In this document: piece after piece, positions 23,066 to 48,452 of the stretch | Layout: each line of letters starts with the position of its first letter | Numbering within the stretch: position 1 is the first letter of the stretch | Origin: a virus | Virus record (IMG/VR): IMGVR_UViG_3300045988_121141 | Coordinates: 1 to 64,000 of that record | DNA: 64,000 bases | Strand: one strand, 5' to 3' | Made by a program: the position numbers and the translations under genes | Notes under the pieces: generated by a model | The model's input: only the letters and a program-made list of their open reading frames with translations | Told to the model about the DNA's origin: nothing | The model's database searches: none

Positions 23066-23773
23066 TTATTTGGTTATAGTATTATTATATACAGGGTTAT
23101 ATCTATCAGAAGGATCTATTAGATACAGCTTTACGTCAGCTTTAAATACTATGTAGCTATCATCTTGTATATTAGACTGAATATGTATTATAGAAACAGT
23201 GTTTAACGATACTGTATTATTAAGTCTACCTTCTATATTGACATTGCTATCAACAACCCCCAGATTCCATTTTGAATCATCCTTGTAAAGAGCTTTATAG
23301 ATAGGGCTGCCAGGTGTCCCTTCATCTGTCTCCTCTTTTATTTCGTAGGTGTAATTCAGGTTATATAATCCAGGAACAACATTGTAAATAGACTCTGGAG
23401 CGTGATTATGATAAACTTTATATTTTTTGTAAGTAATAGGAGTAGAAACAAGAACAAAGTTAATGACAGGCAAACTAACGTGTAGAATATTATAATCATT
23501 TCCATTTTGTGGAGAAACAATTATAGCTATTTTATCTAATCCTTGAATATCTGTACTATTTTCAGTATATGTATCTATCAATTCTCTATTATTAGAGGGC
23601 ACGCCCCCTGAGATACTAATAGAAGAGATGGTTGGTTTTGGAGTAACGTAAATCAAAGGACTGGAGCTTACGACACCTACATTTTTTTCATCTACGAATA
23701 TGGTTCCGCCTATACAGTTGCTATTTATTACATATTCGTATAGCTTAATATCATTTTTGTATCTTCTTCTCAT
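23066..23773 (-). CDS. MRRRY-N-terminal protein, Asn/Ser/Thr/Tyr-rich beta-type (possible fibre/receptor-binding-like)
   Basis: ORF; N-terminus MRRRY shared with three other genes in window. Confidence 0.5.
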   Translation of the reverse strand: MRRRYKNDIKLYEYVINSNCIGGTIFVDEKNVGVVSSSPLIYVTPKPTISSISISGGVPSNNRELIDTYTENSTDIQGLDKIAIIVSPQNGNDYNILHVSLPVINFVLVSTPITYKKYKVYHNHAPESIYNVVPGLYNLNYTYEIKEETDEGTPGSPIYKALYKDDSKWNLGVVDSNVNIEGRLNNTVSLNTVSIIHIQSNIQDDSYIVFKADVKLYLIDPSDRYNPVYNNTITK

Positions 23774-23777
23774 AATT

Positions 23778-24395
23778 TCATAAAATTAATTCAGTAAAAG
23801 GACGGACATAATGTGAACTACCCCTTGAACCTGTATCCAAATGATCTCCTTGGATGTTTATATCATAATACCACGAATAGGAAAATTTTGTATTTCGAGT
23901 GGATGTCCACATTCTATTACTCATTATCGTACCTCCTACCATTAAAAGGCATTCGTTTATTTCATTCGCATACAATGATATCAAAAAAAACTCTCCGGCG
24001 CCACCTACATATCCATTTTGACCATTTTTAAATAAATAGTTATTAGCTTTATTAAAAGCGTAATCTGTATTACTGGTATCATATTCAAGATACGCATTCT
24101 GATTTTCACGCCCCCAATAATCCTTTTTAATAGTTCCCATATGAGAACTATCTTGTGCAAATATATTGTCTATTTCTCCATCCTTACCCCAACGAAATGT
24201 GCCAATATATTCGGTGGCTATAACAAAACACACTTTATCTACAAGAGCTATTCCATTGCATAGATCATTGGAATATCCTTTATTAGACCAATTTTCTTTT
24301 GTATATAATCCTCCATCTACATGTTGGATGTATATGCCTTTATTGATTATAAGCGAGGGATTTACCCCCATCCCTATTTGAAATCTTCGTCTCAT
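23778..24395 (-). CDS. MRRRF-N-terminal protein (start taken at internal MRRRF; ORF track extends to 24482)
   Basis: Internal ATG giving MRRRFQIG matches family N-terminus; upstream 29 codons look non-coding. Confidence 0.45.
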   Translation of the reverse strand: MRRRFQIGMGVNPSLIINKGIYIQHVDGGLYTKENWSNKGYSNDLCNGIALVDKVCFVIATEYIGTFRWGKDGEIDNIFAQDSSHMGTIKKDYWGRENQNAYLEYDTSNTDYAFNKANNYLFKNGQNGYVGGAGEFFLISLYANEINECLLMVGGTIMSNRMWTSTRNTKFSYSWYYDINIQGDHLDTGSRGSSHYVRPFTELIL

Positions 24396-24609: not shown

Positions 24610-27600
24610 CTATTTGTAACTAACGTCATCGTCTCCTTCCGAATCAGGAGTAGCGCCGATGAAGAACATCATTGACTTGTTGTTTGTCTGCTGCCACCAA
24701 TTATAGGCGCGCGCTACGTCTTCCGGCGTCTTGATATTATACCATTGTTTGATAAACGTCTGTTTGGCGAGTTGCCTAAATAGCTTAGACTCTCCTTTGT
24801 ATGTACCGGATGTTACTTTATCAAGTGAATAATTCCTAAGATCGGTAAGATCCTTCAGCTTCCTTCCCATAACAAACGGGTCGTTAATGATATCTACAAC
24901 GTTAAGCTCCATAATAAACGGCATCTGTGAAGCTATTTCGTTTATGGTTCTGAATCCAACGTAAGATCCAAATTGAGTAAGCCAACTTTCTTCGTTTTCA
25001 TCATCATCACGCCATCCGGCAAGAAGCATGGATACGGCTTGCATGATAAGGAACGTGCCGGCATAGACACTGAGGCGTTTGAGATTAGTTTTTTCTACCT
25101 CATTCATATTGTCTTTATTTTCGTTCCAGGCATCTATGATGTTTTTCATACCAGACTCGGAAGCCAGGCTAAATGTTTTGGCTATCATATTCTTTAACGT
25201 AATTGACAACCCTTCCTCTTCTTGCATTGTTTGGAAATTGAAGCCACGTCTTTTCCACAGACGTTGAGCCGCCAGCACCAACCATCCTCGGTGGGCGGTC
25301 ATGAACCTGGCTATCCAGTTGCGCGATGCGGCAGTTCGGTTTTCTTCATTCAAAGATCCGTTACATATCTGCGACAAGCTACGGACTTGATTCCTGGTTA
25401 TAGCCATCTGGGTTTCAACTTCCTCAACAGTAACACCCGATCCTGGCTTTACAACCACCTTCCCATCCACGACGTCTACCATACTCCATAAAGTACGATC
25501 TTTTAATGCATTCCATTCTCTTTTTATGGTACTCTGTTCTTTATTGCGTTCTTTTTCCATCTTGAAATCTTGGAACGTGTAGAACCGACCTTTGTAATAA
25601 CGAACATTGTCCATAGTAGCAATCATAACCTGCGGATCAAGAGGGTAGTTCAGGATTTCCATAAAAGCATACATAGGTGAACGCATTAAGGTCCTGGCCA
25701 CTCTATTATATCCGGCACCATACATACGATTTCGGATATTGAATATCCCCATTCTCTCACCTATGACATATAATTTGCTTTTTCTATCTATGTCTCCGGT
25801 TTCTGCTATACAAGATGGCGCAAGACGGGAAAACTCAGCCGATGCGTATTTAAGGGAATCTTTGCTTATATACTGTCCTACGGCTGATTCCATGATGAGG
25901 TTGATATGGCCGGTAAGGGCGCCGGTAGCTGCCACAAACGGGGACAGTGCCAAGTTCATGACCGACATAAATCTTTCAACGGCCATCATTATCCTGGTAA
26001 GGTCTACTGTGTATCCACCGATGTTTACCGTCAGTTTTTTGGTGTTCATCCTAATGCCATAATAATGGTCATTGAAGAAGTCCCTGAACATCTGATATGC
26101 TTGGGTTGCTTCAGCTTTCTTCCCGCCTTCAAATTGCTTATTCAGCAACATCTGTTCCAGTCCTTGGGCAAGCTCTATAGACTTCTGCTTTTCGTTGTAT
26201 AACGATGACTGCATCATAAGCATCGAATAAGAGTAGCCAAAATCGTGAGATACATCATCTTGGTTTTCCAATTCATATATGTAGTATTTAGGTATAGACC
26301 TAAGTCTGTCTTCCGGATCATATACTTCCCCTTGTCTGGTTTTACCGTATAAAGAATCGTCTACTCTGTCCAGGCACAGATCTGATACAAAATTACGAAC
26401 CGTATTTTTGAAGTTAATACCCAATCCTTCTATACGTTCTATATCTTGTTTGGATATCTGTGGAATAGCATACAGATTAGGGCTCTGCTCTTTATATAGA
26501 TCAAGGGATTGTCTTTTTATTTCCTTGAGTTTTTGAATCATATTCCACTGCTCTACGTTTTTAGTAGCGACCTCATTACCATCAGCATCATACTTAATGC
26601 CGAAGTCGTTGAAATACGATTCATCACGATACAGGCTCTTCTTGGGCATACGATGACCATACCCGTGGTCTTTTACATAATCAGGGTTACGACCGCTATT
26701 TTCGGCCTCGGATTCAGCCACCCATGCTCTTGCAGGGTCAAAAGACAGGTATGATATATCCATACCATAATCTTGTGTGGATGTCCCATTCTGTACGTCC
26801 TTAACCATCTGCGCTACATCTATCTCACCTCGACCGATTTTGTCGATCATAGCCGCATATCCAGTAGGCGCCATGCGTTTATAGTACGAAAAGACCTGGC
26901 TCCTGGCAAATTCATTAACGATATCGTTCACTTCAGCTACTCCGTTATCGTGTCCAAATATGTCAGACATCTTAGCTCTAACCGCATTCCTAAAATCTCT
27001 ACGATCTAGCTTTTTATCTATTCCCAATTTTTCTGACAAGTAGTTGGTTTCAGAGACGGTAAACATATATCTGTTATCTTGAGCCATGAATAACTTATCT
27101 CTAAGAGCCTGAATCCTTTTGGCTTTTTTGGCAGTAGTATGACGCTGTGCAAACTGCCATTCAATTTCCTTAGAGTCAGCAAGAGCATTTAAATAAGACT
27201 GATTTACTTCGTTTTCAGCCTTACTGCTTTTAGTAAGGTATTTATCAATATCTTCAAGACCCACCATCTTAGCATAATCTATCAAAATAGCGTAATCGGC
27301 TTCAATAGCTTCAGATGCGGCCCTAAAAGCATCTCTTTCAGATGAGGTAAATGTCGCTTCATTAATTTCTCCGATATCAGCCACATCTCGGTTGTTGCCG
27401 ATTATTTCCTTGATAATGGCCTTATTTTTTTCTATATCTTTTACAATAGAATCCACGTCAGTCGCATCTCTATCACTTGTCGTAGAACTAATGATATCAT
27501 GCGCCATTTTAAGATACGAAGCCTTGTTATTTGATTCGGTACGTGCCGACTGCTCCGATTCTATGTCATTCCAAAACCGATCGTTAAATGACAGGTGACC

Positions 27601-30600
27601 CCCCAACATAAGCGTCTTCAGCGCAGCTTCCCCTCCAGACTCACGCTGAATCGTTCTCAATCTTTCCAAAAATGATTCTGATACGGCATTAGTGACATTA
27701 TTTGATTCTTTTCTCCAAACTTCATTTATGGCTTGTATTTCTTTAGCCATCTTAAGTTGGTCGCCGGTTTTTTCAACACGTCTGGTACCAACATATATGT
27801 ATTCCGAAGCCGCTTCCTTACGTTGTTTACGAAGCAGTCCTTCTTCTTCGTAGTTACTACTCTTATAGTAAGCAACCTCATCAAAATTACCACCGCTATC
27901 AATAAAAGGCTGCCTCAATATCCGTTTTTGCCGGGAAAGAGCATTAAGATACTCTTTAGTTGTTTGAGAAACCGGATGCCCTAATTCTTCTTCGGCCTTT
28001 TTGTATATGGATTCCATTCTTGTGGCATAACTTTCACTAAATTCCAATTCTGAATTTTCAGCATCCCACTTTTCCATCTGCTCCGTATAGATCTTTTCCT
28101 GCTCGATGGTAAAAATATCGGTATTAACCCTATCGGACGATGGTTTGAATTTAGCGTTTTCAGTAACCGTATTTCCATCCTTGTCAACTACTTCTCTTTT
28201 AAATACGTAATTACGGTTATTGTCAACCACATCATTTATTTCTTCTTCTGATATCTCTATGTTCATGGCAGTCGCAAACGCTCGCATCTGCGCCAGCTTC
28301 TTATTACGATCGTATTTAGCCATATCAAGAGCACTACGAAGGTAATTAGAAGTTTTGCCGTCTACTCTCTGAAGCAGTTTTTCAAATTCATATTTGTTAA
28401 AACCATGCTTTTTCGCATATGCCAGGAAGTCGGATATGGCGGGCTGGGCATTCACCATCGCATTGTAATTGTCTTTGGCAATCATAGCTCCAAGAGCGTT
28501 ATTGAACGGGCTGGAAGAATGCTCTAATATACCAAACCACCTACTTATCCAAGAGACATCATGTTGAACTTTGTCAAAAAATTCTTTTACTCTCTTTACC
28601 TTATCTGCCGGCACATGAAGTTCATTCATTAACTTATCAAGCAACGTACTTTCATCAAGGTCTTGTACTGATTTAATATCAGACTGAATACCATTGATGT
28701 CGGCAATGACGGTATTGATCCTATTTGTATAATCCTGCTTTTCACGTTCATCAAATTCGGTACTTCTGTTACGGATATATCCTCGAAGATCGTTCATGAT
28801 CGGAAGAACCTGATTGTTGATAATATCTACGTTCTTTCGATCATTGGTATTGAAGTGAAGCTTACCGTCTTTGGTATCACCATGAAGGATGGTGTTCACC
28901 ACATTACTTAAGTATCTGACCTGAGCTTCGGCTGTGGAGATCATGCTGTTCATGGCAGCCGCCATCTCATTCTTGTCTATTTCGGTCTCTACCTTATTTA
29001 TCTTATCTTCTATGGTCTTAAGCTGAGCAAGGGTCATAGACGTAGTTACAGCCCTATCAGAGCTTATCTGACGTAAGTCTCTTAATGTTTTTCTTAGTGA
29101 TCTGATCTTGGACTCAAGAAACTTGTTCTTGTTCATAGAAGAAAGGGAGTATAATGTAAAGTCATTATCCTTTAACAGAGAGGTGTCAAATCCTTTATCT
29201 ATGTCAGTAATGGCAAGATCACGAATGTTTTTAATAACGTTATTCAAATCTTGTCTTTGGGTTGATAAAGCTGATTTAAGCCAGCTTACGATTCCAGAGA
29301 AAAGCTGCCGGACGCGCCCCAGGAAGGAGGTGGGCTCTACCGGCGCCTGTGCTGTGCCGGTCTGCATCTCCCTGGCGAGGATCTTTCCAAGAATTTCTCT
29401 CCTAACAGCATTATCAAGCTCAGCTCCTTCATATACTTTACCGTATGTATTATAATACTGACCTGCATATTGGTTCCACTCTTCCGTACCTTCCACATCT
29501 TGCAGAACAGCCTCAACAGCATTCTGATCTCTGTATGCCTCTACAAGGAAGTGGGCTGTTTCTTCTACTAAATCAGATAAAGTAGCATCTTCACCAACTG
29601 CTATTACGTTATTGGCAATATCCGCCAATGCCTTAGCAGAAGGTTCATGCCCGTATTTGGTTTGGTACTTCTCTATATAGTCGGTCATACCTATGACGCT
29701 AACGCCAAGAGTTTTCAGTATCTCGACAATAGAATTTCGTTGGTCACGTTCCTGCCTGCTATAATCCGATACGATCTTAGCTTTAGTATCAGCATAAAGA
29801 TCGTTGTCTTCTAATATGAATGAAACTACAAGCGCATCAAAATGATCGTACTTGGCGTCCAATTCATTGTATCTTCCTGACTTAAGATCGTTCTTTATCT
29901 GCTCCCTGCTAACCCTTTCCGTTCCTCCGGTGGCGAGCCTCATAGTCACCTTACTGTTATCCAACGAGCTTATGGTTATCATACCTTGGTCGTTCATGGA
30001 AACATCGGAACCAAAATGATTACGGAGCTCGGTGTAGGATAAGGCTGAATTGAAAAGTCTAATTTGTCCTGTATGACCTTCTCCTGTAAGATAATAGCTT
30101 CTTGTTTCAGGATCGAATATCTTAGATCCGGACAAAAGACCTTTCTTTATAAGGTAGTTAATTATACCACCTTTTGTTGATAAAGAAGTAGAAGCAGAAG
30201 CGGTCATGACCGGTATAAAAGATTTGGGATTATTAAGAACATACCTTCCAGCTTTGTAAGTAATGTCTGCCACGCCATCCCAGGCAGATTCTTGAACGGT
30301 GCCTGATAAGAATCCTATTCTAATATCATTCCCGCCAGAACGAAGAGCTTCTCCGTAATCTTCAAATAATTGATTACGATCGCTCATGAAAAACAAACGA
30401 GGCTCTCCGGTCTGATACGTTACACCCACAGGATTAGAATCTGTCTGTGGTAACTCTTCTGGGCTAAATATCTTAAGACCGTCTTTTATAACCATATAAT
30501 TAACACCCTTATCCTGTACCATAGATACGGGAGTGAAGTCCGAAGATATAGCATCTTGTAAATACTGACCGGCGTCTATTCCAGGTCCTTCCGGTACGGA

Positions 30601-31023
30601 AATACTTGACGGAACCATAGCATCCACCAACATAATATTATCACCCAGATCTTGGCTGTAGAATCCAAAGCCCGATTCTCGGATTTCATAAGGTGCATCT
30701 GATTTTGACACAAGAACAGGATTACTCATCTTAGAAGCCTTATCCAGCACCCTTTCTCTATAGGCTTCCGGAATAAGATCGATGTTGGATTTTACCTTAT
30801 TATAAGCCGGTTTGTTGATAGGCACTCTCTTTCTCCAGTCGCCAAAAGCCTTTAAGAACTTATTAGAAAATACGGTTTTAAAAACAGTAGTAGCCCGCTC
30901 CCTATTTTCCATAAGAGGAATAGATGCTATTTTATCAAACAACATAGACCTGTCCCCTGATCTGGTAGAGACAGAAACAACTTTCTTTTTATTATCTCTT
31001 TTAATAATACACGTTGATACCAT
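24610..31023 (-). CDS. giant virion/ejection-associated protein (2137 aa), function unknown
   Basis: Uninterrupted 6.4 kb ORF; TAccTTTG promoter-like box about 30 nt upstream. Confidence 0.8.
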   Translation of the reverse strand: MVSTCIIKRDNKKKVVSVSTRSGDRSMLFDKIASIPLMENRERATTVFKTVFSNKFLKAFGDWRKRVPINKPAYNKVKSNIDLIPEAYRERVLDKASKMSNPVLVSKSDAPYEIRESGFGFYSQDLGDNIMLVDAMVPSSISVPEGPGIDAGQYLQDAISSDFTPVSMVQDKGVNYMVIKDGLKIFSPEELPQTDSNPVGVTYQTGEPRLFFMSDRNQLFEDYGEALRSGGNDIRIGFLSGTVQESAWDGVADITYKAGRYVLNNPKSFIPVMTASASTSLSTKGGIINYLIKKGLLSGSKIFDPETRSYYLTGEGHTGQIRLFNSALSYTELRNHFGSDVSMNDQGMITISSLDNSKVTMRLATGGTERVSREQIKNDLKSGRYNELDAKYDHFDALVVSFILEDNDLYADTKAKIVSDYSRQERDQRNSIVEILKTLGVSVIGMTDYIEKYQTKYGHEPSAKALADIANNVIAVGEDATLSDLVEETAHFLVEAYRDQNAVEAVLQDVEGTEEWNQYAGQYYNTYGKVYEGAELDNAVRREILGKILAREMQTGTAQAPVEPTSFLGRVRQLFSGIVSWLKSALSTQRQDLNNVIKNIRDLAITDIDKGFDTSLLKDNDFTLYSLSSMNKNKFLESKIRSLRKTLRDLRQISSDRAVTTSMTLAQLKTIEDKINKVETEIDKNEMAAAMNSMISTAEAQVRYLSNVVNTILHGDTKDGKLHFNTNDRKNVDIINNQVLPIMNDLRGYIRNRSTEFDEREKQDYTNRINTVIADINGIQSDIKSVQDLDESTLLDKLMNELHVPADKVKRVKEFFDKVQHDVSWISRWFGILEHSSSPFNNALGAMIAKDNYNAMVNAQPAISDFLAYAKKHGFNKYEFEKLLQRVDGKTSNYLRSALDMAKYDRNKKLAQMRAFATAMNIEISEEEINDVVDNNRNYVFKREVVDKDGNTVTENAKFKPSSDRVNTDIFTIEQEKIYTEQMEKWDAENSELEFSESYATRMESIYKKAEEELGHPVSQTTKEYLNALSRQKRILRQPFIDSGGNFDEVAYYKSSNYEEEGLLRKQRKEAASEYIYVGTRRVEKTGDQLKMAKEIQAINEVWRKESNNVTNAVSESFLERLRTIQRESGGEAALKTLMLGGHLSFNDRFWNDIESEQSARTESNNKASYLKMAHDIISSTTSDRDATDVDSIVKDIEKNKAIIKEIIGNNRDVADIGEINEATFTSSERDAFRAASEAIEADYAILIDYAKMVGLEDIDKYLTKSSKAENEVNQSYLNALADSKEIEWQFAQRHTTAKKAKRIQALRDKLFMAQDNRYMFTVSETNYLSEKLGIDKKLDRRDFRNAVRAKMSDIFGHDNGVAEVNDIVNEFARSQVFSYYKRMAPTGYAAMIDKIGRGEIDVAQMVKDVQNGTSTQDYGMDISYLSFDPARAWVAESEAENSGRNPDYVKDHGYGHRMPKKSLYRDESYFNDFGIKYDADGNEVATKNVEQWNMIQKLKEIKRQSLDLYKEQSPNLYAIPQISKQDIERIEGLGINFKNTVRNFVSDLCLDRVDDSLYGKTRQGEVYDPEDRLRSIPKYYIYELENQDDVSHDFGYSYSMLMMQSSLYNEKQKSIELAQGLEQMLLNKQFEGGKKAEATQAYQMFRDFFNDHYYGIRMNTKKLTVNIGGYTVDLTRIMMAVERFMSVMNLALSPFVAATGALTGHINLIMESAVGQYISKDSLKYASAEFSRLAPSCIAETGDIDRKSKLYVIGERMGIFNIRNRMYGAGYNRVARTLMRSPMYAFMEILNYPLDPQVMIATMDNVRYYKGRFYTFQDFKMEKERNKEQSTIKREWNALKDRTLWSMVDVVDGKVVVKPGSGVTVEEVETQMAITRNQVRSLSQICNGSLNEENRTAASRNWIARFMTAHRGWLVLAAQRLWKRRGFNFQTMQEEEGLSITLKNMIAKTFSLASESGMKNIIDAWNENKDNMNEVEKTNLKRLSVYAGTFLIMQAVSMLLAGWRDDDENEESWLTQFGSYVGFRTINEIASQMPFIMELNVVDIINDPFVMGRKLKDLTDLRNYSLDKVTSGTYKGESKLFRQLAKQTFIKQWYNIKTPEDVARAYNWWQQTNNKSMMFFIGATPDSEGDDDVSYK

Positions 31024-38308: not shown

Positions 38309-40588
38309 TTACCTGCATTCTAATTTGTTAAGGTCATCCAATTCAGACTTGCTTACGGTCATGTCTTGCGTCAAGCCAGATCTGTTTTGGTATGGAGCGT
38401 AATCGGTTTCTACCACCTTAGCCTTCTGAGTAGAATCGTATTTCACCTCCGATTCGGTTCCTGTCAGATTTTGGTAGATAGATCCGGAACTACTTTCGCT
38501 TACTTTAGACCATATCTTATTACCTACTCTTATAAAATTATCATAAATACCTTCGGCTGTTATAACACCATCTTGCTCTACGATATTAGGGCCCGATTTT
38601 TCTTTTAACAGATACGGGTGCCTGGTGTAAAAATAGTGTTCAAAATCATTCCCGGCATACGAAGAGTCATACTTCTCCAAATAAAACAATTCTGATAAAG
38701 AAGGGTCGGTACTGGTCATGCTATAATCAAACAACATCAACCTGTCTTTTCCAGATAAAGATAATTCTATTGATTTCAAAATATCAGGATCATCAGAAAT
38801 AAGGCCCAAAGATGGACCAGGTTTGAAGTCAAGATACTTATAGGCATTATCATATAATTTTGTTTTATGGAGTTTGTTGTCAAGGTAAGATTGGTATAAA
38901 TCGAATAAGGATAATGGGTTTTCGCTATCTTGTTTTTTGTTCATGTATCGACTATACTCCCGATCCACATCCACGTAAGGAACGTCAAGTACCGCCGGGT
39001 GCCCAAACGCCATCCTGGTCATTATCATGTCCTCTGTGTTTTGAGAATCCATGAACGATCTGACGTATTTTTTAATGGAATCCATGAGCGTATTATTATC
39101 TACGTTCCGTACTTTCTCTTTATCCAAAACGCCGTTCTTAAAACAAGATTCAGGATATATTTTAGTAGAAAAATGAGTTAGGTTGTGCTTGGCTAACACT
39201 GTTGATATTTGATACATCTCGTTAAGATCATCTTTGCTGATCCTTTGATATAGATTATCTCCTACCTTAAGCAATGAATGTTTCTCAAATGCTTCTACTG
39301 GGTCTATATCAGATTCAGAATAAACGATATTCAAATTATCCATATATTCCGGCAATAATTCAAAATAATAGTCTGTACTATCACCAAGAACATCATCTAT
39401 AGAAGATGCCAGTGTTGGAGCATAATTTGCATCATTATGCCTAGCCACATAAATATCAAGATCCAGCATCAAATTATCTATCTTATTCAAAGATTCTTCT
39501 GTGCCATCATAAGTTTCCGATGTCCCTATTATATCTATGCCAAACCACGTACAAGCCTCTTCTATATCCCATATCATGCTTCTTAAATCGGATTCGGTGT
39601 CGGCATTAGCCCTATGTAAATAAGCTGATATACGAGCTCTTAGGAACTCTATTTTGCCAGGATTGTAATAAGACATATCTTGTAGCTTAGACAAGGATCT
39701 TCTCTTGCCTTCTACCACATCATCCCCTTCTATGTTTATTACCGGAATCTTATTCGTAGATAAAAACTCATCAAACATAGATTCGGCAAATTCTTTATCA
39801 GAAACGAATTTCTCAACCAGTTCAGGATATGAGTTTCTCAACGATTCAAAAGCAGATGAAAATTCAGAAAAGTTTTTTATGCCGGCTACTGTTTTACGTA
39901 TAGCATAATAAAGCTCAGAAGGATTATATGGCACTTTTTTACCAAATTGGTTAAACACTCCCTCCTTGTAAACAATAGGACCATACTGATAGTCAACAGA
40001 CATAAAATAATTATCCTTTTCCCTATCATGTTCGTTAATAGAATAATCTATTAACTTTCTCATGGAAGTCGAAACCTCATTTAAAACAGAAGGATCGGAT
40101 AAAATACGACTTATCTCTGTTTCATCATACAAACCGGATCTCCTTAATTTCTGCTCATTCAGTATCAAACTGCCATCTACATAAAAATCGAAGAGAATAG
40201 CATTAGACAATGAAGACGCATTGAAAAAATAATGAGTAGACAAAAGGAAATCCCTTACATCCTTAATATCCTGAGCCGTTAAAGGATCAGCAAAATAAGT
40301 CTGACGCTTCATATACGACAGCACGTCTTCTAAAAGAGGTTCGCCATTGGGATCGGTATTAAACATCTCCCCTGGAGCCGGGTTATTCCAATGACCGTAA
40401 TACGACAAAAAACCAGGAGTGTAAGCCTTAGCCCATACCTGAAGAGCTCGTTCGCTATTTCCTAATAATTTTAAGGCACTTTCGTAAAGAACGGAAGGCT
40501 CCCCGTTAGGAGCCTTAACCCGTTTTATTTCATTTTCCTTTTTTTCTATCTGACATTTGACACCCATAGTGATAAATATTTTGGACAA
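38309..40588 (-). CDS. large virion-associated hypothetical protein (759 aa; alternative start MGVKCQ at 40567)
   Basis: Long ORF. Confidence 0.6.
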   Translation of the reverse strand: MSKIFITMGVKCQIEKKENEIKRVKAPNGEPSVLYESALKLLGNSERALQVWAKAYTPGFLSYYGHWNNPAPGEMFNTDPNGEPLLEDVLSYMKRQTYFADPLTAQDIKDVRDFLLSTHYFFNASSLSNAILFDFYVDGSLILNEQKLRRSGLYDETEISRILSDPSVLNEVSTSMRKLIDYSINEHDREKDNYFMSVDYQYGPIVYKEGVFNQFGKKVPYNPSELYYAIRKTVAGIKNFSEFSSAFESLRNSYPELVEKFVSDKEFAESMFDEFLSTNKIPVINIEGDDVVEGKRRSLSKLQDMSYYNPGKIEFLRARISAYLHRANADTESDLRSMIWDIEEACTWFGIDIIGTSETYDGTEESLNKIDNLMLDLDIYVARHNDANYAPTLASSIDDVLGDSTDYYFELLPEYMDNLNIVYSESDIDPVEAFEKHSLLKVGDNLYQRISKDDLNEMYQISTVLAKHNLTHFSTKIYPESCFKNGVLDKEKVRNVDNNTLMDSIKKYVRSFMDSQNTEDMIMTRMAFGHPAVLDVPYVDVDREYSRYMNKKQDSENPLSLFDLYQSYLDNKLHKTKLYDNAYKYLDFKPGPSLGLISDDPDILKSIELSLSGKDRLMLFDYSMTSTDPSLSELFYLEKYDSSYAGNDFEHYFYTRHPYLLKEKSGPNIVEQDGVITAEGIYDNFIRVGNKIWSKVSESSSGSIYQNLTGTESEVKYDSTQKAKVVETDYAPYQNRSGLTQDMTVSKSELDDLNKLECR

Positions 40589-40609
40589 AGGTATTATAAA
40601 AAATAGAAA

Positions 40610-41197
40610 TTATGAAACTTCTATTTCATAATGCGAAGCCTTTGTTTCAACTATTAATCTTCCCTCTCCTTCGAACTCAACACTATTATCTCCTGGACCA
40701 GTAACAAAATGGAAATCAGATACGGATGTTACATAATCTTTATCACCACCAGAAAAAGACTGACTTTTACTTTGTTTGTAATTGATAGTCAATTGTGTTT
40801 TACCTATCTGAAGAGTTCCAGATAAATTTTTAGTATAAGTAGTGGTAGTTGTAATATCCCCATTTTTATAACAATACATTATAAAGGTGGTAACCGGACT
40901 CTTTTTTATATTACTATCCGGACCTGCATGATAAGATTCATTTCCTCCAAATATGCTATAAATGTGACAATAAGGACCGACTCTTTTACTTGAAGTTTTA
41001 GCCTTATCCTCGACTCCTTTCAAAGATATAGTAACCTTACTCTTGTATTCAATATCCTTCCAATTACAGACTCCTTCACTTACGTTTCCAACAAACCTGT
41101 CATCAACATAAACCTCTATATCCCCCTGCTGATTGGTCTTCAACTGATACTGAACAAGATTTGAAACATCTTCGTATCTCCTTCTCATACTCAACAC
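40610..41197 (-). CDS. MLSMRRRY-N-terminal protein (195 aa), Ser/Thr/Gly/Tyr-rich
   Basis: ORF; start region lies in a duplicated 47-nt junction. Confidence 0.5.
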   Translation of the reverse strand: MLSMRRRYEDVSNLVQYQLKTNQQGDIEVYVDDRFVGNVSEGVCNWKDIEYKSKVTISLKGVEDKAKTSSKRVGPYCHIYSIFGGNESYHAGPDSNIKKSPVTTFIMYCYKNGDITTTTTYTKNLSGTLQIGKTQLTINYKQSKSQSFSGGDKDYVTSVSDFHFVTGPGDNSVEFEGEGRLIVETKASHYEIEVS

Positions 41198-41222
41198 TCC
41201 TTATTTAACTCATTTATCGAAT
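41176..41222 (-). repeat. 47-nt junction repeat copy A (copy B at 41793..41839, 1 mismatch)
   Basis: atctccttctcatactcaacactc[c/t]ttatttaactcatttatcgaat present twice; spans RBS plus MLSMRRR start and, in copy B, the 2214-aa gene terminus SINELNKEC*. Confidence 0.7.
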
Positions 41223-41249
41223 TTTTCTATCTGACATTTGACACCCATA
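41223..41249 (-). repeat. 27-nt repeat (second copy at 40541..40567) duplicating the MGVKCQIEK start region of the 759-aa gene
   Basis: tttttctatctgacatttgacacccat identical at both sites. Confidence 0.7.
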
Positions 41250-41274
41250 ATAATTAACTTTTTTTCAAAATTAA

Positions 41275-41814
41275 CTATAAAATCGACTTATACAATGACG
41301 GATCCCAAACTCCTTCTATATAAATCTCTGGGAAACTCAAACTGCCATCACGAAGAGTGGTAACTTTCAAACTGGGAATGTTAAAAACAGTGCTAACATC
41401 ACTAAACTCACCATTCAACTTAATAGCATTTCCACTATTATCAGCTTCATAATAATAATAACAATAATTTTCATTAAGACTCGGATCATATTCGTACCAA
41501 TATGTTAGATCTTGCATATGGTCTTCTATATTACCAATTTTATTTCCACCTAATATAAAAATACCATTATTGCTATGATGATAAACCGTAGATTCATAAT
41601 TACCATAATTCCAGTCACTATTAAACACTATATCACTGACATCGGAATCATGATCTTTTAATACAGGTCCTATATGTATATGAATTTTATTAAACTGACA
41701 TACATAAGGTCTTTTTCCTCCAAGCCTTTTTATCTCTTCATTAGATAACTTATTATAACATCCTCCCACAAAATTATCCGCAGCATTAAAAAATCTCCTT
41801 CTCATACTCAACAC
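41275..41814 (-). CDS. MLSMRRRF-N-terminal protein (179 aa), Asn/Tyr-rich
   Basis: ORF; start overlaps last codons of the 2214-aa gene. Confidence 0.5.
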   Translation of the reverse strand: MLSMRRRFFNAADNFVGGCYNKLSNEEIKRLGGKRPYVCQFNKIHIHIGPVLKDHDSDVSDIVFNSDWNYGNYESTVYHHSNNGIFILGGNKIGNIEDHMQDLTYWYEYDPSLNENYCYYYYEADNSGNAIKLNGEFSDVSTVFNIPSLKVTTLRDGSLSFPEIYIEGVWDPSLYKSIL

Positions 41815-44800
41815 TCTTTATTTAACTCATTTATCGAATCCGAATTATCAGAACCTTCTACGAGATTCTTATTCCTATCTATCTCTTCCTGACTCATGTT
41901 ACTCATCATATTTTGTATTTTTCTACCAGATTGAGATAAAGAGCGGATGAATGCACTGGAACTTATCTTAACTCCAAGATCCGGTTTTGCCCTAAACGCT
42001 TCACCGGTACTGATATTATACAAATCATACACACCTGAGTTCATATAGAATTTATATATCCAGTTTCCACCAGCTTTTTTGTACCCTAATTTGGTTAACT
42101 CGACTACACTCATACCAAATTTAATGCCATTACGACCCATTATCTTCTCCGGTATAGGTTCTACCTTAGCCGGAACAGATGTATATGCTTCATCGCCGCC
42201 GTACAGGAAATAAGGGGTTGTCACCCTTGATATGTGAGTAAGCGACTCTTCGGATATACGAGGTTCGTCTTTCGCAGCCTTAGATCCTTTCCTTAGATTG
42301 GATATTCTAATAAAAGGATCGTATGTCAAAAAGGTTAAGCCGTATTCTACTTTATAACCTGATACGCCGTTAAGATCCCTTATAGCCTTAGTCGTATGCG
42401 AGTGATTGATGGTGTCTATACCATACCTTGATTCCATATCGGTCATAATACTATTAACCTCATCTCCCTCTACATAAACCTCTTCTCCTTCCGGGATAGA
42501 GGTTATGCCGGCAGCCCTTCTAAGTAGCCATAAAGTAACTTCAGCAATGTCAGAGAACTTATCTCCGTTCTTCCTATAGTTATCTACTCTTCCTTCTTCA
42601 GATCCAGGTAATTCGACATTTCTTTCAACTTCGACATTTGTTCTGGATTGTCCTTTGCCTTCTCCATCTCCCTTTTTATCGCCATCTTCCTCAGTGCGTA
42701 CTGCACCGCCTTCTGCACTTCCTTCTTTTCCATCATTTAAAATATTATCTGATTCTGACTCTATAGACTCCACGACAGCATCATACTCTGGTATGCCGCT
42801 AAGGAAATCTGCTACGTTATTCAAAAACTCTATTTTTTCCTCGTTTGTCATATCAAGGCTTTCCACGGGCCCCCATATGGCGGGCAAGTTGTTTGATTTT
42901 ATTACAGTAGAAACATCTTCTATAGTTTGGTTGTCCACCGTAGGCAAAACTTTAGAAACCAAACTATTGATATCAGATTCCATTTTTTCTACTTCCTCTT
43001 TTGTGCCATATTCTTTTAGGGTATCCATGCCATTGACTCTAAGAGAATAATTCAAAGCCTTGCTTGGAACAAAATTAATATATTTCAAAAAGTTTTTCAA
43101 CTCTGATATAATTTGTTCGTCAGATCTTGGCCCAACATAATCCTCGACTACCTGATCTGTTTGAGAACGAAGCCAAGAAACGTATTCTTCTAAAGTCTTA
43201 CCACCTTTACCGGAAGGAGTGGATATTTTATCACCTACTGTTCCTTTAGGTTCTAATCCCATTTCCTCCTTAAGGCTTTTAGGATTACCTCTCTCACGAA
43301 GAAACCTCAAATCACCTCCTACAATCTTCCTTGCTATAAAATCAAAAATATTAGCATAAGGCGGCAATCCCTCTTTTTCTATATGAGATTCTATTTCGTT
43401 TAACATAAGAGAGAAGTTTTTCCTGGAGGTACGCTTCTTGCCAGGTAAAGACTGCGCATCTTGTGCCGCAGGAGCCGGCTGAGCTAATGGCGCCGGCTGA
43501 GTCTCCCGGGCAGCCCCTTCCTCTGGCATTTCCTCTTCATAAACTTCCACATCTTCTACCTTAGAAGTAACGGTCTTACCCTCATCAGAGAAAGGAAGAT
43601 CATCCTCTATAAGCGATTTAGGTCTGGAAGATGATTTGCCAAACTGAATCCTGATCTTAGGAGCGACAAACATCTCACCTTCGAAATCTATTCCAGATTC
43701 TACTTCAGACGTCACAATGTCTTTCACATTCCTGCTTTCATCTTCTACCCACTTAACAACATCAGGAACCGTAGATAATTTTTCTATAGCCTCACGAGCT
43801 TTTCTAAGCCCTGAAATAGGATTCAAATACGATACTTGATACGAAGCCGGATCAAGACCTAACTTGGTTAGATACGCATTAAGATCTTGTATGTCATCTT
43901 GACCCATCTGTAGCAATTCAGAATCACCAGATTCAAGCAGCATATCTATAAAAGACATCCATTTCTGCCCTTCCTCTGATTCTACAGAACGTAGGCTAAC
44001 TGGGAAAAGATAATTAAGACCGTTTTTACCTTTGATGACGACTACCGGAACTCTTACATTTTTGTAATTATTCCCCTTGTCATTTAATATAGAATAAGCA
44101 AATGGGAAGCCTGTGTATTTAGATCCGTTCTTAAGCACGACTTTGCCATTTAATACATATCCAACATCAGATACTTTTTCAGCACCTTTTTCGGTAATAG
44201 GGAGATTTTCTATCTGGCCATATCCTTGACCGTTCACCTTCATGTTAAACACCGGTCTTCCGGGAAGGGTCTGGGCAACAACATGCGTGCCGACGCCGAT
44301 GGTAGCCGACCGGCCGGCGTCCTTCTTCCACTTGTTAAAAGCCGTTCTTCTTATTTTACTTATACCATCTATGCCTCCTGTATCAGCTTTTACAACAGAA
44401 ACGAATCTGTTTCCACTCATGACCTTGATAACCATATTGGATACCAGTTTATTTTCAGCAGATTCTATTCTTTTTTTATCTCCGGACTGAACAGCATCAT
44501 TGTATTCGGCAAAAAGAGACTGATTATAGGTATCATTTACATCTATTTCGAGATTAACCTTATCTCCTTTTTTCAAAGAAGATAATGCTTCCTGATCTAT
44601 TTTATCTACTTCATTCTCTCCGAATCCGACACCCGTTCTGTACGGAACCAACTCATCTGAATCAAGACGCTTATAAACCAAAGAATATGAATTACCCACG
44701 TCCTGAATAGACACATCTGTGTAACGGTTAAGAACACGAGCCGATTCTTTGTCTATAGACCATCTCGCATGATAAGGCAGTTCAATTATAGTAGCCGTTT

Positions 44801-47800
44801 CTCCACCTATGTTAAGAGAATACCTTTTAGTACCATTAGCGTTCGTTTCAGAGCTTATTTGAATAGGAACCAATGATTTTATAGAAGATATAAATTTATC
44901 GGCTCTAAGACCTGCAATTTCATACCTTTCATTGCCGTCATTGGAGATTCTTCTTACCATCAACGTCTCTGGATTCTGGGCGCTATCTATATTGGCTCCC
45001 GGCGTATTATCAGATTCGTCTAATTCATTTACAAGAGAATCTATATTAGCATCATCCTCCCCAAAATTACTTAACGTAGATTCGGAAATACGACCTTTAT
45101 CAATAATCCTGTTTTGTTCGATATAAGGAAGGAGATCCGTGATGTTTCCAACCTGGCCAAGATCTTCTATGGTAAATACCGAATCGGCAAGCTTATCTTC
45201 GTCAACTTTCTCCCCTTTGTCCCGTCTGTTCATTATATCAACATACGAAGAAATAGCATCATCAAGTTCCTTCCTTTGATCTGGTTCCAAATTGGATTTA
45301 GCCATATCAATAATAGCTTTATTATCCTCATACACAGATCTCGGACTTGTAAGCCTATCAGCCTTTTCAGATAATGATTTTATGAGATTAACGGGACTGT
45401 CACCCAAAGACGATACATAATCATCAAAATCTTGTTTGTATTTATCATACACATCTTTTTCTCTCTCAGTAAGAAGATCGGCATTACCTGTATATAGTTT
45501 ATCAATTATAGACTGCCTTACGGCCGGAACCATAATAGGATTATCCATAGCAGCCTCATAATCTTCATCCGATACAGACTCCGTAAGCGGTGACTCTTTT
45601 ATATCATCTTCTGCTTCCTTCATCCTATCTTCCCTTACTTTATCAAGAGCATGCATAAAAGCCTTGATAGTCCAAGCTTCGTCTTCCGAAATCTTACCTT
45701 CTGACACAGCTTGATCTACTACCTCATCAGTGTCATATTCACCAACTTTATTAGACTCTGCAAAATCAGGAACCTTGTCATCCCCTTTATAAGGAGTAGA
45801 CCATAGAGAAGACAGCGCTTTTGAAAACCCCCTGTTTTCCTCAGCTAAGAATCTTTTATCAAGCATCTTAGACAAGAAGTTATTCATATTCCTATAGTCC
45901 ATCAAACTTCTTCGGTATTCATTTACCAAGGATCTCATGGCTTTGTCTTTGGCTGTAAACTTCTTTTCCTGTCTTGATTTTACATTAAAATAATCATCAA
46001 AAGCCACAAGCGTATCATAGGCTTCTATCACATCTTGTGAACTTATGGGAGAAAGAGGAGATGATAAAACAGATTCGGTTTTACTTACCAGCTCTTCTAT
46101 CGAAAACTCTTTTCCTATTAACGTTGATAACTCAGACAACGAATTGTTGTAATTGGTTCTAAGGCTTTCCAATTCTTTGGTTTTTCGTTGTATGGATTCA
46201 GCTTGTGGATCTTTCCCTTCTACGTTGCGAGGGCGGGTAGCAAGATCTTCTATTTCGGATTCAAGTTCTTCTATTCTTGACCGTATGCCACGGATAGCCA
46301 TCGCCCGCTCCCTTGCCCTGTCCGACAGCCGGGAGAACGTACTTAGAGCATCCGCCACGCGAGGCTGCCCCGAAAGCGTTTCTATGACAGAAGCTATGTC
46401 TTTCATTCTTGATTCCGATTGAAGACCAAGAAAAGCATTACGAGCCACGTATTTCCTAAACTCAATCTTAGAATCATCACCTATAAGATCTTCGGCAAAA
46501 CTCTGGGCAGATCTGAAATCCGAAAGACGATTATTATAATTATCAATAATAGAGTCCTTGTATTTCTTTGCCTCTTCCAAAGACATTCCATTAGCTTCGG
46601 CTATTTCCGAAATAGGCATCATATCAATCATCTGCCGGAAATTTTCAGCCGAATCCTCTAAGGTTCCCATTTGGTTGTCAATAGACATCTTTTCAAACAT
46701 AGCATCATCAAGCTCCTTACCAGTCATAGACTGGGCATCGGAACGAACTTGAGGCCCTAAACTCATTGATTTTTTCAACGTATTCAAAGCCGCCGTGTTA
46801 AGATTAGAAGATGCTTTGTTATATTCATTCACTTGCCTTTCCAGCAAGATCTGACTATTACTATACTCTTTCACCCCAAAGAAGCCTTCTCTCATACCAA
46901 ACAAAGAACCGATAATAGCACCGATTCCTATTTCAGTCCATCCTTCTTTAGACGTATATTGCTTTTTAAATCCTTCAGAAATAGCATCAAGAACATCAAC
47001 GGCTCCGTTCATGGCGACATTATCATATCTTGACTTAACATATTCCTCAGCCGTATTCTGAACAGCACCTTGAGATCCTTCTTCCCATAAGCCTTCAGAT
47101 ACCGGTCTTTTCATGATATTGAAAACATTGCCTGCTATCTTCTGTCCTATATTGGGATTGGTTATTTTAATAGCCATCTCTCCCGGCTTCGCAACTTCCG
47201 TCCCTAATCCAAATAAATGCTTGTTGAGCCTCTTTTCCAACCCTGGTATAGCCTTGCCTCCTAACCCTATATACTTACCAAAAAGAAGCCAGTTAGATAA
47301 TCCTACGATACCCATATTGGCGGCAAATATAGCACTACCTACATCAGCATTAGAATTACGAAAAACAGCCATTTCCTCTGCATTGGGATCACGACCATAA
47401 ATCTTACGATAATAATCCTTGAAATCAGACTCAGATTGCTTCATAAAAGAATTTGCTTCAACCGATGACTCGAATCCGGCACTGGTAGCCAACAACGTCA
47501 TGGTCTTAGCCGCCTCCCCTACATTTCTTCCGGTAGCAACTCCTTTTCTTACATAGTCGTTAAACACGCTTTTAAGGCTTCCTATGCCCCTATTGGCAGC
47601 TTGCCTTGCTGCTAACTTAGCTCCGATTCTTCCACCTAATTTAGCGCCTATATTACCCAATGATCCAACTCCAAGTCCTCCGGTCATGTACGCTGATATC
47701 ATGGCTCCTACGGTAAAAGACATACCATTACCAAGGACGTCATTCCACAAGAAATTACCGGTATCCTTAAAAAGCTTCTGACCAAAATTATAATCTTCTA

Positions 47801-48452
47801 CCTCTTTCTTGTAATAATGGGGAAGAAGCATGTCTATTTGCTGGTCAAGATCACCTACAAACTTATCCATGTTAGTGTTTAACGCAGCTTTGTAACTTCC
47901 CTCAGATGCCATATTGATAAGTTTGTCAGGCAATGACACAACTCCTTGTGCACCGTACAATGCGGATTTTAAAGCGAATTTGCCTACACCATTCCAAAAC
48001 TTACTCCACCCGCTCTGTCTCCTGGCATAATAATCCTCATTATTTATACCCGGAATATAGTTGGGATATTTTGTACGCCATACCCCATCATTACCCATCT
48101 GATGACTTTCACGGATACTTACCTTCGGTCCATAGGGATTAAGAGGCGGCGGGGCAGGTGTAGCCCCCCTGTAGCTGTTACGAGCCAGTGCCTCTGAGTA
48201 GCTGTTGCTTATCTCCTTGGCTATATACGGTTCTTCGTATTCGGCAGCAGCTATCCTTGATGCGTAATCCGGAAATTTAGGTTGGGCATACACACCTTCA
48301 CCAGGCATATAATTAGGAACCAGAGGCGTTGTCGTCTCTGGTAATGTAGCCGGAGTGTAATTCTCTTCTTCGGCTAATTTCCTTTGCCTTGCCACATCTT
48401 CGTAAGTGGTTTTAGCAGCAGGATTATATCTATCTATATTATTGTCAGCCAT
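41808..48452 (-). CDS. giant virion/ejection protein (2214 aa) with Gly-rich hydrophobic segments
   Basis: 6.6 kb ORF. Confidence 0.8.
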   Translation of the reverse strand: MADNNIDRYNPAAKTTYEDVARQRKLAEEENYTPATLPETTTPLVPNYMPGEGVYAQPKFPDYASRIAAAEYEEPYIAKEISNSYSEALARNSYRGATPAPPPLNPYGPKVSIRESHQMGNDGVWRTKYPNYIPGINNEDYYARRQSGWSKFWNGVGKFALKSALYGAQGVVSLPDKLINMASEGSYKAALNTNMDKFVGDLDQQIDMLLPHYYKKEVEDYNFGQKLFKDTGNFLWNDVLGNGMSFTVGAMISAYMTGGLGVGSLGNIGAKLGGRIGAKLAARQAANRGIGSLKSVFNDYVRKGVATGRNVGEAAKTMTLLATSAGFESSVEANSFMKQSESDFKDYYRKIYGRDPNAEEMAVFRNSNADVGSAIFAANMGIVGLSNWLLFGKYIGLGGKAIPGLEKRLNKHLFGLGTEVAKPGEMAIKITNPNIGQKIAGNVFNIMKRPVSEGLWEEGSQGAVQNTAEEYVKSRYDNVAMNGAVDVLDAISEGFKKQYTSKEGWTEIGIGAIIGSLFGMREGFFGVKEYSNSQILLERQVNEYNKASSNLNTAALNTLKKSMSLGPQVRSDAQSMTGKELDDAMFEKMSIDNQMGTLEDSAENFRQMIDMMPISEIAEANGMSLEEAKKYKDSIIDNYNNRLSDFRSAQSFAEDLIGDDSKIEFRKYVARNAFLGLQSESRMKDIASVIETLSGQPRVADALSTFSRLSDRARERAMAIRGIRSRIEELESEIEDLATRPRNVEGKDPQAESIQRKTKELESLRTNYNNSLSELSTLIGKEFSIEELVSKTESVLSSPLSPISSQDVIEAYDTLVAFDDYFNVKSRQEKKFTAKDKAMRSLVNEYRRSLMDYRNMNNFLSKMLDKRFLAEENRGFSKALSSLWSTPYKGDDKVPDFAESNKVGEYDTDEVVDQAVSEGKISEDEAWTIKAFMHALDKVREDRMKEAEDDIKESPLTESVSDEDYEAAMDNPIMVPAVRQSIIDKLYTGNADLLTEREKDVYDKYKQDFDDYVSSLGDSPVNLIKSLSEKADRLTSPRSVYEDNKAIIDMAKSNLEPDQRKELDDAISSYVDIMNRRDKGEKVDEDKLADSVFTIEDLGQVGNITDLLPYIEQNRIIDKGRISESTLSNFGEDDANIDSLVNELDESDNTPGANIDSAQNPETLMVRRISNDGNERYEIAGLRADKFISSIKSLVPIQISSETNANGTKRYSLNIGGETATIIELPYHARWSIDKESARVLNRYTDVSIQDVGNSYSLVYKRLDSDELVPYRTGVGFGENEVDKIDQEALSSLKKGDKVNLEIDVNDTYNQSLFAEYNDAVQSGDKKRIESAENKLVSNMVIKVMSGNRFVSVVKADTGGIDGISKIRRTAFNKWKKDAGRSATIGVGTHVVAQTLPGRPVFNMKVNGQGYGQIENLPITEKGAEKVSDVGYVLNGKVVLKNGSKYTGFPFAYSILNDKGNNYKNVRVPVVVIKGKNGLNYLFPVSLRSVESEEGQKWMSFIDMLLESGDSELLQMGQDDIQDLNAYLTKLGLDPASYQVSYLNPISGLRKAREAIEKLSTVPDVVKWVEDESRNVKDIVTSEVESGIDFEGEMFVAPKIRIQFGKSSSRPKSLIEDDLPFSDEGKTVTSKVEDVEVYEEEMPEEGAARETQPAPLAQPAPAAQDAQSLPGKKRTSRKNFSLMLNEIESHIEKEGLPPYANIFDFIARKIVGGDLRFLRERGNPKSLKEEMGLEPKGTVGDKISTPSGKGGKTLEEYVSWLRSQTDQVVEDYVGPRSDEQIISELKNFLKYINFVPSKALNYSLRVNGMDTLKEYGTKEEVEKMESDINSLVSKVLPTVDNQTIEDVSTVIKSNNLPAIWGPVESLDMTNEEKIEFLNNVADFLSGIPEYDAVVESIESESDNILNDGKEGSAEGGAVRTEEDGDKKGDGEGKGQSRTNVEVERNVELPGSEEGRVDNYRKNGDKFSDIAEVTLWLLRRAAGITSIPEGEEVYVEGDEVNSIMTDMESRYGIDTINHSHTTKAIRDLNGVSGYKVEYGLTFLTYDPFIRISNLRKGSKAAKDEPRISEESLTHISRVTTPYFLYGGDEAYTSVPAKVEPIPEKIMGRNGIKFGMSVVELTKLGYKKAGGNWIYKFYMNSGVYDLYNISTGEAFRAKPDLGVKISSSAFIRSLSQSGRKIQNMMSNMSQEEIDRNKNLVEGSDNSDSINELNKEC

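Follow-up and report, generated by a model that had tools for sequence, protein, structure and literature searches.

Interchangeable MRRR[F/Y]-headed genes and a tandem attributed to unequal crossover at an accessory slot of an epsilon crAss-like phage

The window analysed here, a 64,000-nt stretch (positions 1 to 64,000) of the viral record IMGVR_UViG_3300045988_121141 in IMG/VR, contains a locus in which two small genes of dissimilar sequence, g1 and g2, lie in tandem between the gene for a 2214-aa giant virion protein and the gene for a 752-aa protein. Both small genes start with the same short head, MRRR followed by F (g1) or Y (g2), and the junctions between the genes are repeated. The window comes from an epsilon crAss-like phage (Epsilonunovirus-like) of the human gut. 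Epsilon crAss-like phages are viruses that abound in the human gut; to our knowledge they have no cultured member, and functional annotation of this region of their genomes is almost nil. The nearest phage is crAssE-Sib (OR575929), a human-gut epsilon crAss-like phage of 151 kb, with which the window has 93-97% identity along its length. In the description of crAssE-Sib by Babkin et al. 2024 (PMC11054128), keyword searches found nothing on this slot or on an MRRR head, and the g2 homologue is given only as a hypothetical protein.

All genes of the locus are on the minus strand, in the order 2214-aa gene, junction A, g1, scar, junction A', g2 and 752-aa gene (Table 1). The 2214-aa protein matches PHROG 32390, and its crAssE-Sib homologue is annotated as a structural protein. 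A 47-nt block that an earlier note on this DNA had reported twice, at 41176-41222 and 41793-41839, was found at both positions with one mismatch (98% identity), and its content, the end of the 2214-aa gene, two bases and the first codons of the following gene, was confirmed on the minus strand. The 35-nt core of this block occurs exactly twice in the window, against an expectation of 0 (100 shuffles); the copy in junction A' has an AAGGAG variant, as in crAssE-Sib. Similarly, the 27-nt block described in the note as the MGVKCQIEK start of the 752-aa gene (759 aa in that reading) exists in two copies without mismatches (ATGGGTGTCAAATGTCAGATAGAAAAA on the minus strand), at 40541-40567 and at 41222-41248, the latter one position away from where it had been placed (41223-41249). 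Neither repeat would be expected by chance. A repeat search stretches the 27-nt block to 61 nt at 79% identity, of which only the first 27-28 nt are truly common; the remainder is AT-rich spacer that differs in the two cassettes. The middle copy of MGVKCQIEK is part of the scar, in which 27 nt from the start of the 752-aa gene run on into the final ~33 nt of the 2214-aa gene, and it opens an open reading frame (ORF) of 12 codons only (MGVKCQIEKFDK, then stop).

In comparison to crAssE-Sib, which has g2 alone between the two large genes, the window contains exactly one extra unit, of 617 nt, and only g1 lies inside it. Past the head, nothing is alike in g1 and g2, as the earlier note had observed: BLASTP gave no alignment between them better than E = 0.04, and a comparison of the family profiles with hhalign gave a probability of 1%, the aligned part being MRRR[FY] alone. 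The same note had the shared head as MLSMRRR, which implies the upstream GTG (VLSMRRR). As many other genes also begin with MRRR[FY], the true N-terminus is almost certainly the ATG of MRRR.

Table 1. Features of the two cassette loci in the window
Feature	Position	Strand	Remarks
2214-aa giant virion (structural) protein gene	41808..48452	-	ORF list; last ten codons within junction A
Junction A	41793..41839	-	2214-aa gene tail (SINELNKEC, stop), 2 nt, ATG AGA AGG AGA T = g1 start
g1, 176-aa MRRRF-headed ORFan	41275..41805	-	commonest slot occupant among relatives
g1-type 3' spacer, 26 nt	41249..41274	-	-7-like motif TAATTTTG (Bacteroidetes-type) at 41273..41266
Scar	41210..41248	-	first 27 nt of 752-aa gene (41248..41222) joined to 2214-aa gene tail
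Junction A'	41176..41222	-	second 2214-aa gene tail + g2 start
g2, 192-aa MRRRY-headed ORFan	40610..41188	-	sole slot occupant in crAssE-Sib
g2-type 3' spacer, 42 nt	40568..40609	-	-7-like motif TACCTTTG at 40593..40586
752-aa gene	38309..40567	-	ATG at 40567; junction B' = 40541-40567
2137-aa giant virion structural protein gene	24610..31023	-	PHROG 37651, virion structural protein, E 2e-79; upstream of h1/h2
h1, 205 aa, MRRRFQIG...	23778..24395	-	directly downstream of 2137-aa gene
h2, 235 aa, MRRRYKND...	23066..23773	-	after h1

A scan of IMG/VR for junction A retrieved at least 116 loci, 98 of which were long enough for classification. Among the latter, about 49 have g1 alone and about 27 have g2 alone (three frameshifted), six have g2 followed by g1, and one (L060) has g1 followed by g2. 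Of the remaining classified loci, about 10 carry g1 or g2 together with one of three different TnpB elements, L080 and L117 have TnpB without an intact g1 or g2, and L094, L104 and L107 have internal deletions in the slot. Separate IMG/VR scans with the exact fusion sequences located the g1-g2 scar in four contigs besides the window and the g2-g1 scar in nine, from more than one metagenome; the fusion in L060 and L121-L123 is identical to the window's scar. In relatives whose 752-aa homologue is more diverged, the slot holds a g1 interrupted by TnpB (L131; 77% identity), is empty, with 26 nt from the stop of the giant gene to MGVKCQIEK (L126; 69%), or contains antirepressor-like genes (L129 and L130; 47%) or a third ORFan, the 152-aa g3 (L132-134; 43%). 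In MT839099, the gene upstream of a distant 752-aa homologue is a different one. The comparison across relatives that the earlier note had proposed as its own check thus reveals a variety of contents behind the same junctions (g1 only, g2 only, both orders, TnpB, deletions or nothing): the slot is a polymorphic accessory slot.

Several further observations concern the contents of the slot. The antirepressor-like genes (L129 2906-3934; L130 2951-3934) encode KilA-N+ANT or Bro-N+ANT proteins and are alternative versions of each other, and in a 30%-identity relative (L120 1250-2113) a 287-aa ORF upstream of the 752-aa homologue looks antirepressor-like by eye only. The window has a TnpB-like ORF of its own (410 aa, MRLAYKFNIGNNENISSLCK...) at 20937-22169 on the plus strand, apparently of the same family as the TnpB in L017, L037, L075, L081, L112 and L119 (near-identical first ~60 residues), which sits between g1 or g2 and the 752-aa gene. 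Two more TnpB families target the slot (L013/L045/L101 and L080/L117/L131) and sometimes disrupt or replace g1 or g2.

Both genes have low ratios of non-synonymous to synonymous polymorphism (pN/pS 0.22 for g1 and 0.31 for g2), which indicates that they are real genes under purifying selection and yet, because empty and TnpB-only states of the slot exist, dispensable. Proteins from public assemblies (P0014-P0025, P0037 and P0046-P0053) include many differing in-frame internal deletions of g1 and g2. These suggest either frequent deletion in the two genes or relaxed or fluctuating selection, and some of the variants could be assembly collapses. P0037 is a chimera of g1 (residues 1-63) and g2 (residues 141-192) which can only be derived from the tandem.

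The origin of the tandem may be explained as follows. g1 and g2, of which the slot normally has one, would be exchanged between genomes by ordinary homologous recombination in conserved flanks, on the left the tail of the 2214-aa gene with the first four codons, and on the right the start of the 752-aa gene. A single unequal, illegitimate crossover or template switch in an A7 run, between a g1 genome and a g2 genome, would then have joined g1 of the former, with the 27 nt that open its 752-aa gene, to the final ~33 nt of the 2214-aa gene of the latter, with its g2. Both repeated blocks would be the footprint of this crossover, and they would now be direct repeats (47 nt and 27 nt) that permit loss of either gene. 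In both tandem types the left breakpoint falls within this A7 run of the 752-aa gene, directly after GATAGAAAAA. The right one differs in its place in the 2214-aa gene tail and is directly before TTCGATAAATGAG in the window type and before TAAGAATCTCG in the reciprocal type. Microhomology at the breakpoints is 1-2 nt (1 nt, within the A7 run, in the window type), and the window crossover joined codon 9 of the 752-aa gene to codon -10 of the 2214-aa gene. From the loci compared, the crossover and exchange steps can be regarded as established; loss of g1 or g2 across the direct repeats is a step that we infer. Overall, the genomic mechanism (slot, swapping and unequal crossover) is well supported.

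It is extremely improbable that the arrangement of g1, scar and g2 was created during assembly, as a chimera of g1 and g2 strains that occur together. Both alleles are frequent in gut metagenomes and have junction k-mers in common, but the scar, GAAAAA joined to TTCGAT, is in neither parent, so it must exist in the reads. Four further contigs, which come from at least two metagenomes, have this scar as well, and the tandem-derived chimera P0037 occurs in another assembly. The other genomes with g1 followed by g2 are collinear with the window and 97-98% identical to it, with a 2-3% difference from each; therefore, the tandem is heritable. The earlier note had named an assembly artefact as the explanation that would overturn its reading, and these independently assembled genomes contradict it.

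A second explanation, that the tandem arose by in-situ duplication of one ancestral gene whose copies diverged past recognition, is scarcely credible. The unit does stand head-to-tail with repeated ends, and the first 37 aa of g2 are 41% identical to h2, a head-bearing protein encoded elsewhere in the window, so that very divergent relatives exist in the family. However, the repeated junctions are 98-100% identical and the gene bodies have nothing in common, a combination that speaks against duplication and divergence; near-identical genomes with g1 only or g2 only are common; and the reverse order occurs with a different scar.

It is also very unlikely that a dedicated site-specific system (integron-like, homing endonuclease or mediated by TnpB/IS200-605 insertion sequences) moves the cassettes via the junctions. 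Such a system could explain three observations: the end of the two tandem scars at one and the same GATAGAAAAA position, the insertion of three different TnpB elements in the slot of relatives, and the presence of a TnpB in the window itself. Against this, the cassettes encode no recombinase or nuclease, and their 'ends' are pieces of neighbouring genes, a hallmark of unequal crossover and not of insertion at a specific site. The end that the two scars share is within a homopolymer run, and the two events differ in microhomology. The TnpB elements disrupt g1 and g2, in which or next to which they are placed at varying positions. No attC-like repeat typical of integron cassettes was detected, only weak, scattered inverted repeats, and the neighbourhood has no integrase; an integrase search that included IntegronFinder also failed in crAssE-Sib (Babkin et al. 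2024, PMC11054128). The 617-nt unit of the window contains no TnpB ORF of an IS200/IS605-TnpB element. Nor is the locus a target of a diversity-generating retroelement, since its junction repeats are 98-100% identical fragments and not a template repeat and variable repeat; the retroelement of this lineage is elsewhere (crAssE-Sib, 45.7-47.8 kb). The proposal in the earlier note of cassette swapping at conserved junctions thus stands as regards the alternative cassettes in relatives, but the duplicated blocks are a crossover scar and not specialised recombination sites.

Exchange by homologous recombination has its own traces. Cassette type is scattered over near-identical flanks (for instance, L006 has g2 and L119 has g1 between flanks 99.3-99.7% identical), and an A/G single-nucleotide polymorphism (SNP) in junction A, at a distance of 24 nt from the boundary, shows no linkage to the type of cassette. 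Additionally, identity to crAssE-Sib is 99-100% in g2 and over the first ~600 nt of the 752-aa gene, in comparison to 90-94% in other parts of that gene. The scattered cassettes, the unlinked SNP and this mosaic of identity are consistent with frequent recombination. The same SNP was considered as a marker of the parental origin of each junction copy and was rejected, as it is unlinked to cassette type. A tail variant of the 2214-aa gene missing one ATTCGG unit, which would provide 6 nt of microhomology for the window scar, was absent from the at least 116 loci. In one IMG/VR locus among L004-L119, the tail reads ATAAATGAGTTAAATAAAGAGTGTT directly followed by TCGATAAAT, a small duplication within junction A in which part of A is followed by TCGATAAATGAG again; it hints that junction A may be slippage-prone.

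The head itself is not restricted to g1 and g2. Of 560 candidate ORFs in the window, four start with MRRR, where 0.006 would be expected, and all four (g1, g2, h1 and h2) continue with F or Y. A census of MRRR ORFs over all of the relatives' loci that were retrieved, the window and crAssE-Sib found F or Y at position 5 in 186 of 186 ORFs from the retrieved loci, which fall into nine sequence families. The 150 kb of crAssE-Sib hold four such ORFs: g2, h1, h2' and t1, the last of which encodes a 240-aa protein of the Pfam family Gly_rich_2 in the tail region. g3, which starts with MRRRY, belongs to phages whose 752-aa homologue is only 43% identical, and a 53%-identity relative (L128) has four MRRRF genes in a row upstream of the 752-aa homologue, one of them h2-like and one Gly_rich_2. 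The latter, a 294-aa protein, and t1 both meet the Gly_rich_2 model (PF21722) above its gathering score. Head-bearing genes are small (about 150-450 aa), lie on the virion-gene strand and occur in a tandem array or a variable slot, and both head loci in the window follow a giant virion gene. In one relative (L127, 748-2166 on the minus strand of the locus), a 454-aa MRRRF Gly_rich_2 gene is inverted with respect to neighbours that are otherwise collinear with L128, and therefore the arrays also rearrange by inversion or replacement.

Because the arginine codons differ between families (AGA AGG AGA, AGA CGA AGA, AGA CGG AGA or AGG CGT CGT), the head is conserved at the protein level. The reverse reading, in which the conserved ATGAGAAGGAGA is a nucleic-acid signal (Shine-Dalgarno-like, for translational coupling, or a promoter), takes account of the Shine-Dalgarno-like character of AGAAGGAGA and of the spacing between the preceding stop codon and the start, which is 1-4 nt in g3 and at both loci. 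This reading has very little probability, however, given the synonymous variation of the arginine codons, the invariable F or Y at position 5 and the start of h1, which is 212 nt past the upstream stop. MRRR[F/Y] can accordingly be described as a protein-level signature of at least nine dissimilar small-protein families at at least three loci. What appears to be new is its status as a family-wide protein motif that extends to the second locus of the window. The MRRRF start was also considered as a twin-arginine translocation or lipoprotein signal; this was rejected, as g2, g3 and h2, read directly, are without any hydrophobic region.

The second locus, that of h1 and h2 (Table 1), is also variable. 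The position of h2 is occupied in crAssE-Sib by h2', an unrelated 149-aa MRRRF gene, and across 50 IMG/VR genomes h2 was found in 34 and h2' in 15. The swap begins directly after ATGAGAAGAAGAT. h2/h2' is thus a second dimorphic cassette slot.

Searches for the identity of the slot proteins gave few leads. g1, g2 and the 752-aa protein have no match in Pfam, PHROGs, PADLOC or NCBIfam, and a sequence search of PDB with the 2214-aa, 2137-aa and 752-aa proteins returned none. In tblastn searches with g1 and h2 against 50,697 phage records there was no match. An exhaustive HMMER search with the g1 profile recovered g1 fragments only, apart from one weak match to a MucBP repeat in an adhesin (P0074; E 5e-5, 33% identity over about 50 aa), which has no Pfam support even at E <= 10 and was set aside as unconfirmed. 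The bodies of g1 and g2 have no detectable homology to a known fibre, spike or adhesin domain in Pfam, PHROG, NCBIfam or at PDB level, and do not match Gly_rich_2 (PF21722) even at E <= 10. AlphaFold2 models built on the shallow alignments of g1 and g2 are unusable (predicted local distance difference test scores of 32 and 33). The 752-aa homologue of crAssE-Sib is listed in Table S1 of Babkin et al. 2024 (PMC11054128) as a DNA-dependent (virion) RNA polymerase, on the basis of HHpred; a 12-sequence profile of the protein searched against PDB gave no match, which leaves this label unconfirmed.

Other head-bearing families offer a connection to fibres. Members of Gly_rich_2 match the PHROG families 'minor tail protein' and 'tail fiber assembly', and in cr1_1 (Suoliviridae) the gene that directly follows a fibre-like gene, two genes ahead of the holin, encodes a 257-aa Gly_rich_2 protein that begins MLRRRT. 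In its congener cr55_1, a 229-aa homologue of the h1 body (E 3e-10) is encoded just past the fibre gene and ahead of the holin, and in cr116_1 (Steigviridae) the C-terminus of a 783-aa protein is an h1-like domain (E 6e-10); short motifs recur in this protein, and we read them as fibre-like. Among close relatives of the window, a constant N-terminal part is combined with an exchangeable C-terminal part, as in receptor-binding modules. The link of g1 and g2 to such modules is circumstantial, as it comes from two other head families (h1 and Gly_rich_2) that match fibre-tip or fibre-adjacent crassvirus proteins. A precedent for a short docking sequence is found in phiCrAss001, in which the N-terminal 26 residues of the fibre protein gp22 dock it to the tail hub (PMC10172136).

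The explanation preferred here combines these points: a swappable slot, a tandem produced by unequal crossover, and a head that serves as a docking plug on exchangeable virion modules. The MRRR[F/Y] head would be a constant docking or incorporation peptide that plugs interchangeable bodies, most likely distal fibre-like or adhesin-like ones, into a conserved virion partner, and g1 and g2 together would give the virion two alternative modules. As a whole this explanation is given a probability of roughly 0.6, and the function of the head as a plug and the adhesin-like nature of the bodies are its conjectural parts.

Several points weigh against it. Five residues are very short for a docking signal, and its conserved partner is a postulate. 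Outside the lineage, g1 and g2 are without a homologue, and they have no domain match and no usable structural model. At 26-29% identity, the links of h1 and Gly_rich_2 to fibres are remote, and they depend on database annotations. The slot lies in a block with a giant virion gene and a putative RNA polymerase gene, not in an annotated fibre block, which would suit an ejected internal protein at least equally. The slot is not reserved for head-bearing genes, since in the 47%-identity relatives it holds KilA-N/Bro-N + ANT genes. With regard to the origin of the tandem, exactly five A residues are retained in both tandem scars, which could hint at shared ancestry and not at two independent events.

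In the main alternative, which the position of the slot supports, the MRRR[FY] proteins would be ejected or internal components of the virion (for instance, anti-defence effectors), packaged along with the giant cargo proteins and the putative RNA polymerase, and the head would be a capsid-targeting signal like that of the T-even internal proteins, the genomic mechanism being the same. Crassvirus virions do contain cargo proteins, including RNA polymerase-associated giants (PMC10172136); the slot is between a giant virion gene and the listed, unconfirmed virion RNA polymerase gene; and g1 and g2 are dispensable and often deleted, truncated or replaced, as arms-race accessory genes are. However, two head families resemble fibre-tip or fibre-adjacent proteins and not internal ones, no protease site or processing signal is evident past the head, and g1 and g2 have no PADLOC or anti-defence match. 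This alternative is considered unlikely, although well above negligible. A broader form of the docking explanation is possible but doubtful: MRRR[F/Y] may be a general, previously undescribed incorporation or docking tag of epsilon crassviruses, whose carriers are mounted on or packed into the virion via one conserved partner, with a library of payloads (g1, g2, g3, h1, h2, h2', Gly_rich_2 and others) that is shuffled and stacked to broaden host range or to counter defence.

Comparison with known systems places the docking-plug explanation in context. At the IPI/IPII/IPIII locus of T-even phages, unrelated small genes share a short conserved N-terminal leader that directs incorporation into the virion, and the bodies are anti-restriction accessory proteins (PMC3012670). 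The present loci are similar in having diverse bodies behind a conserved N-terminal leader at a polymorphic locus, a resemblance of organisation only: the head is five residues in comparison to about 10, no protease processing motif is evident, two of the head families are fibre-tip-like or tail-like, and the assembly pathway of crassviruses differs. Of the same viral order, phiCrAss001 gp22 (PMC10172136) also has a short N-terminal plug on an appendage protein; the head described here is much shorter, and the likeness drawn is one of position.

The distal tail-fibre and adhesin loci of T-even and other phages, where gp38 follows gp37 in the T-even case and gp37/gp38-type modules are exchanged, likewise combine a constant attachment part with an exchangeable specificity part that is swapped at conserved sequences, and the glycine-rich stand-alone protein that follows the fibre gene in cr1_1 recalls gp38. 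In contrast to those loci, g1 and g2 have neither glycine-rich motifs nor fibre homology, and they adjoin giant virion and putative RNA polymerase genes with no annotated fibre. Moron, hyperplastic and anti-CRISPR loci share with the slot a fixed place between conserved late genes, dispensable unrelated ORFans, insertion sequences or TnpB, and an empty state, but usually lack a common N-terminal motif; no anti-defence homology was found here. Finally, g1 and g2 resemble the idiomorphs of fungal mating-type loci in being two non-homologous alleles between the same flanks in one recombining population. The two alleles of the slot, unlike idiomorphs, can be in tandem or lost, so this comparison is descriptive only.

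The loci are of interest because, at two or more places in each genome, whole genes are exchanged on the scale of the population while the five-residue head in front of them stays constant. Should the head be a tag for docking or packaging, it would mark variable, probably host-interaction components of these phages, provide a simple sequence rule for locating such components in metagenomes, and offer a handle for the display or packaging of foreign proteins. Taken together, the tandem, its scar, the reciprocal g2-g1 order, the single forms and the chimeric deletion product constitute a rare stepwise record of the growth and shrinkage of an accessory array in an uncultured phage.

Two minor features adjoin the slot. 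The C-terminal part of the 2214-aa gene contains a mosaic patch (~42050-42700, minus strand) with ~60% identity to crAssE-Sib between flanks of 97-100%; IMG/VR contains at least four allelic types of this patch, whose assortment is independent of the g1/g2 state. The patch was considered as a partner domain that co-varies with cassette type and was rejected for want of co-variation. A TAnnTTTG motif (Bacteroidetes -7-like; background density 0.59 per kb) is kept in the g1-type spacer, in the g2-type spacer and in the empty slot (L126 3974-3990), ~20-30 nt upstream of the ATG of the 752-aa gene. In the tandem, the first copy of this motif is now ahead of the scar ORF and g2.

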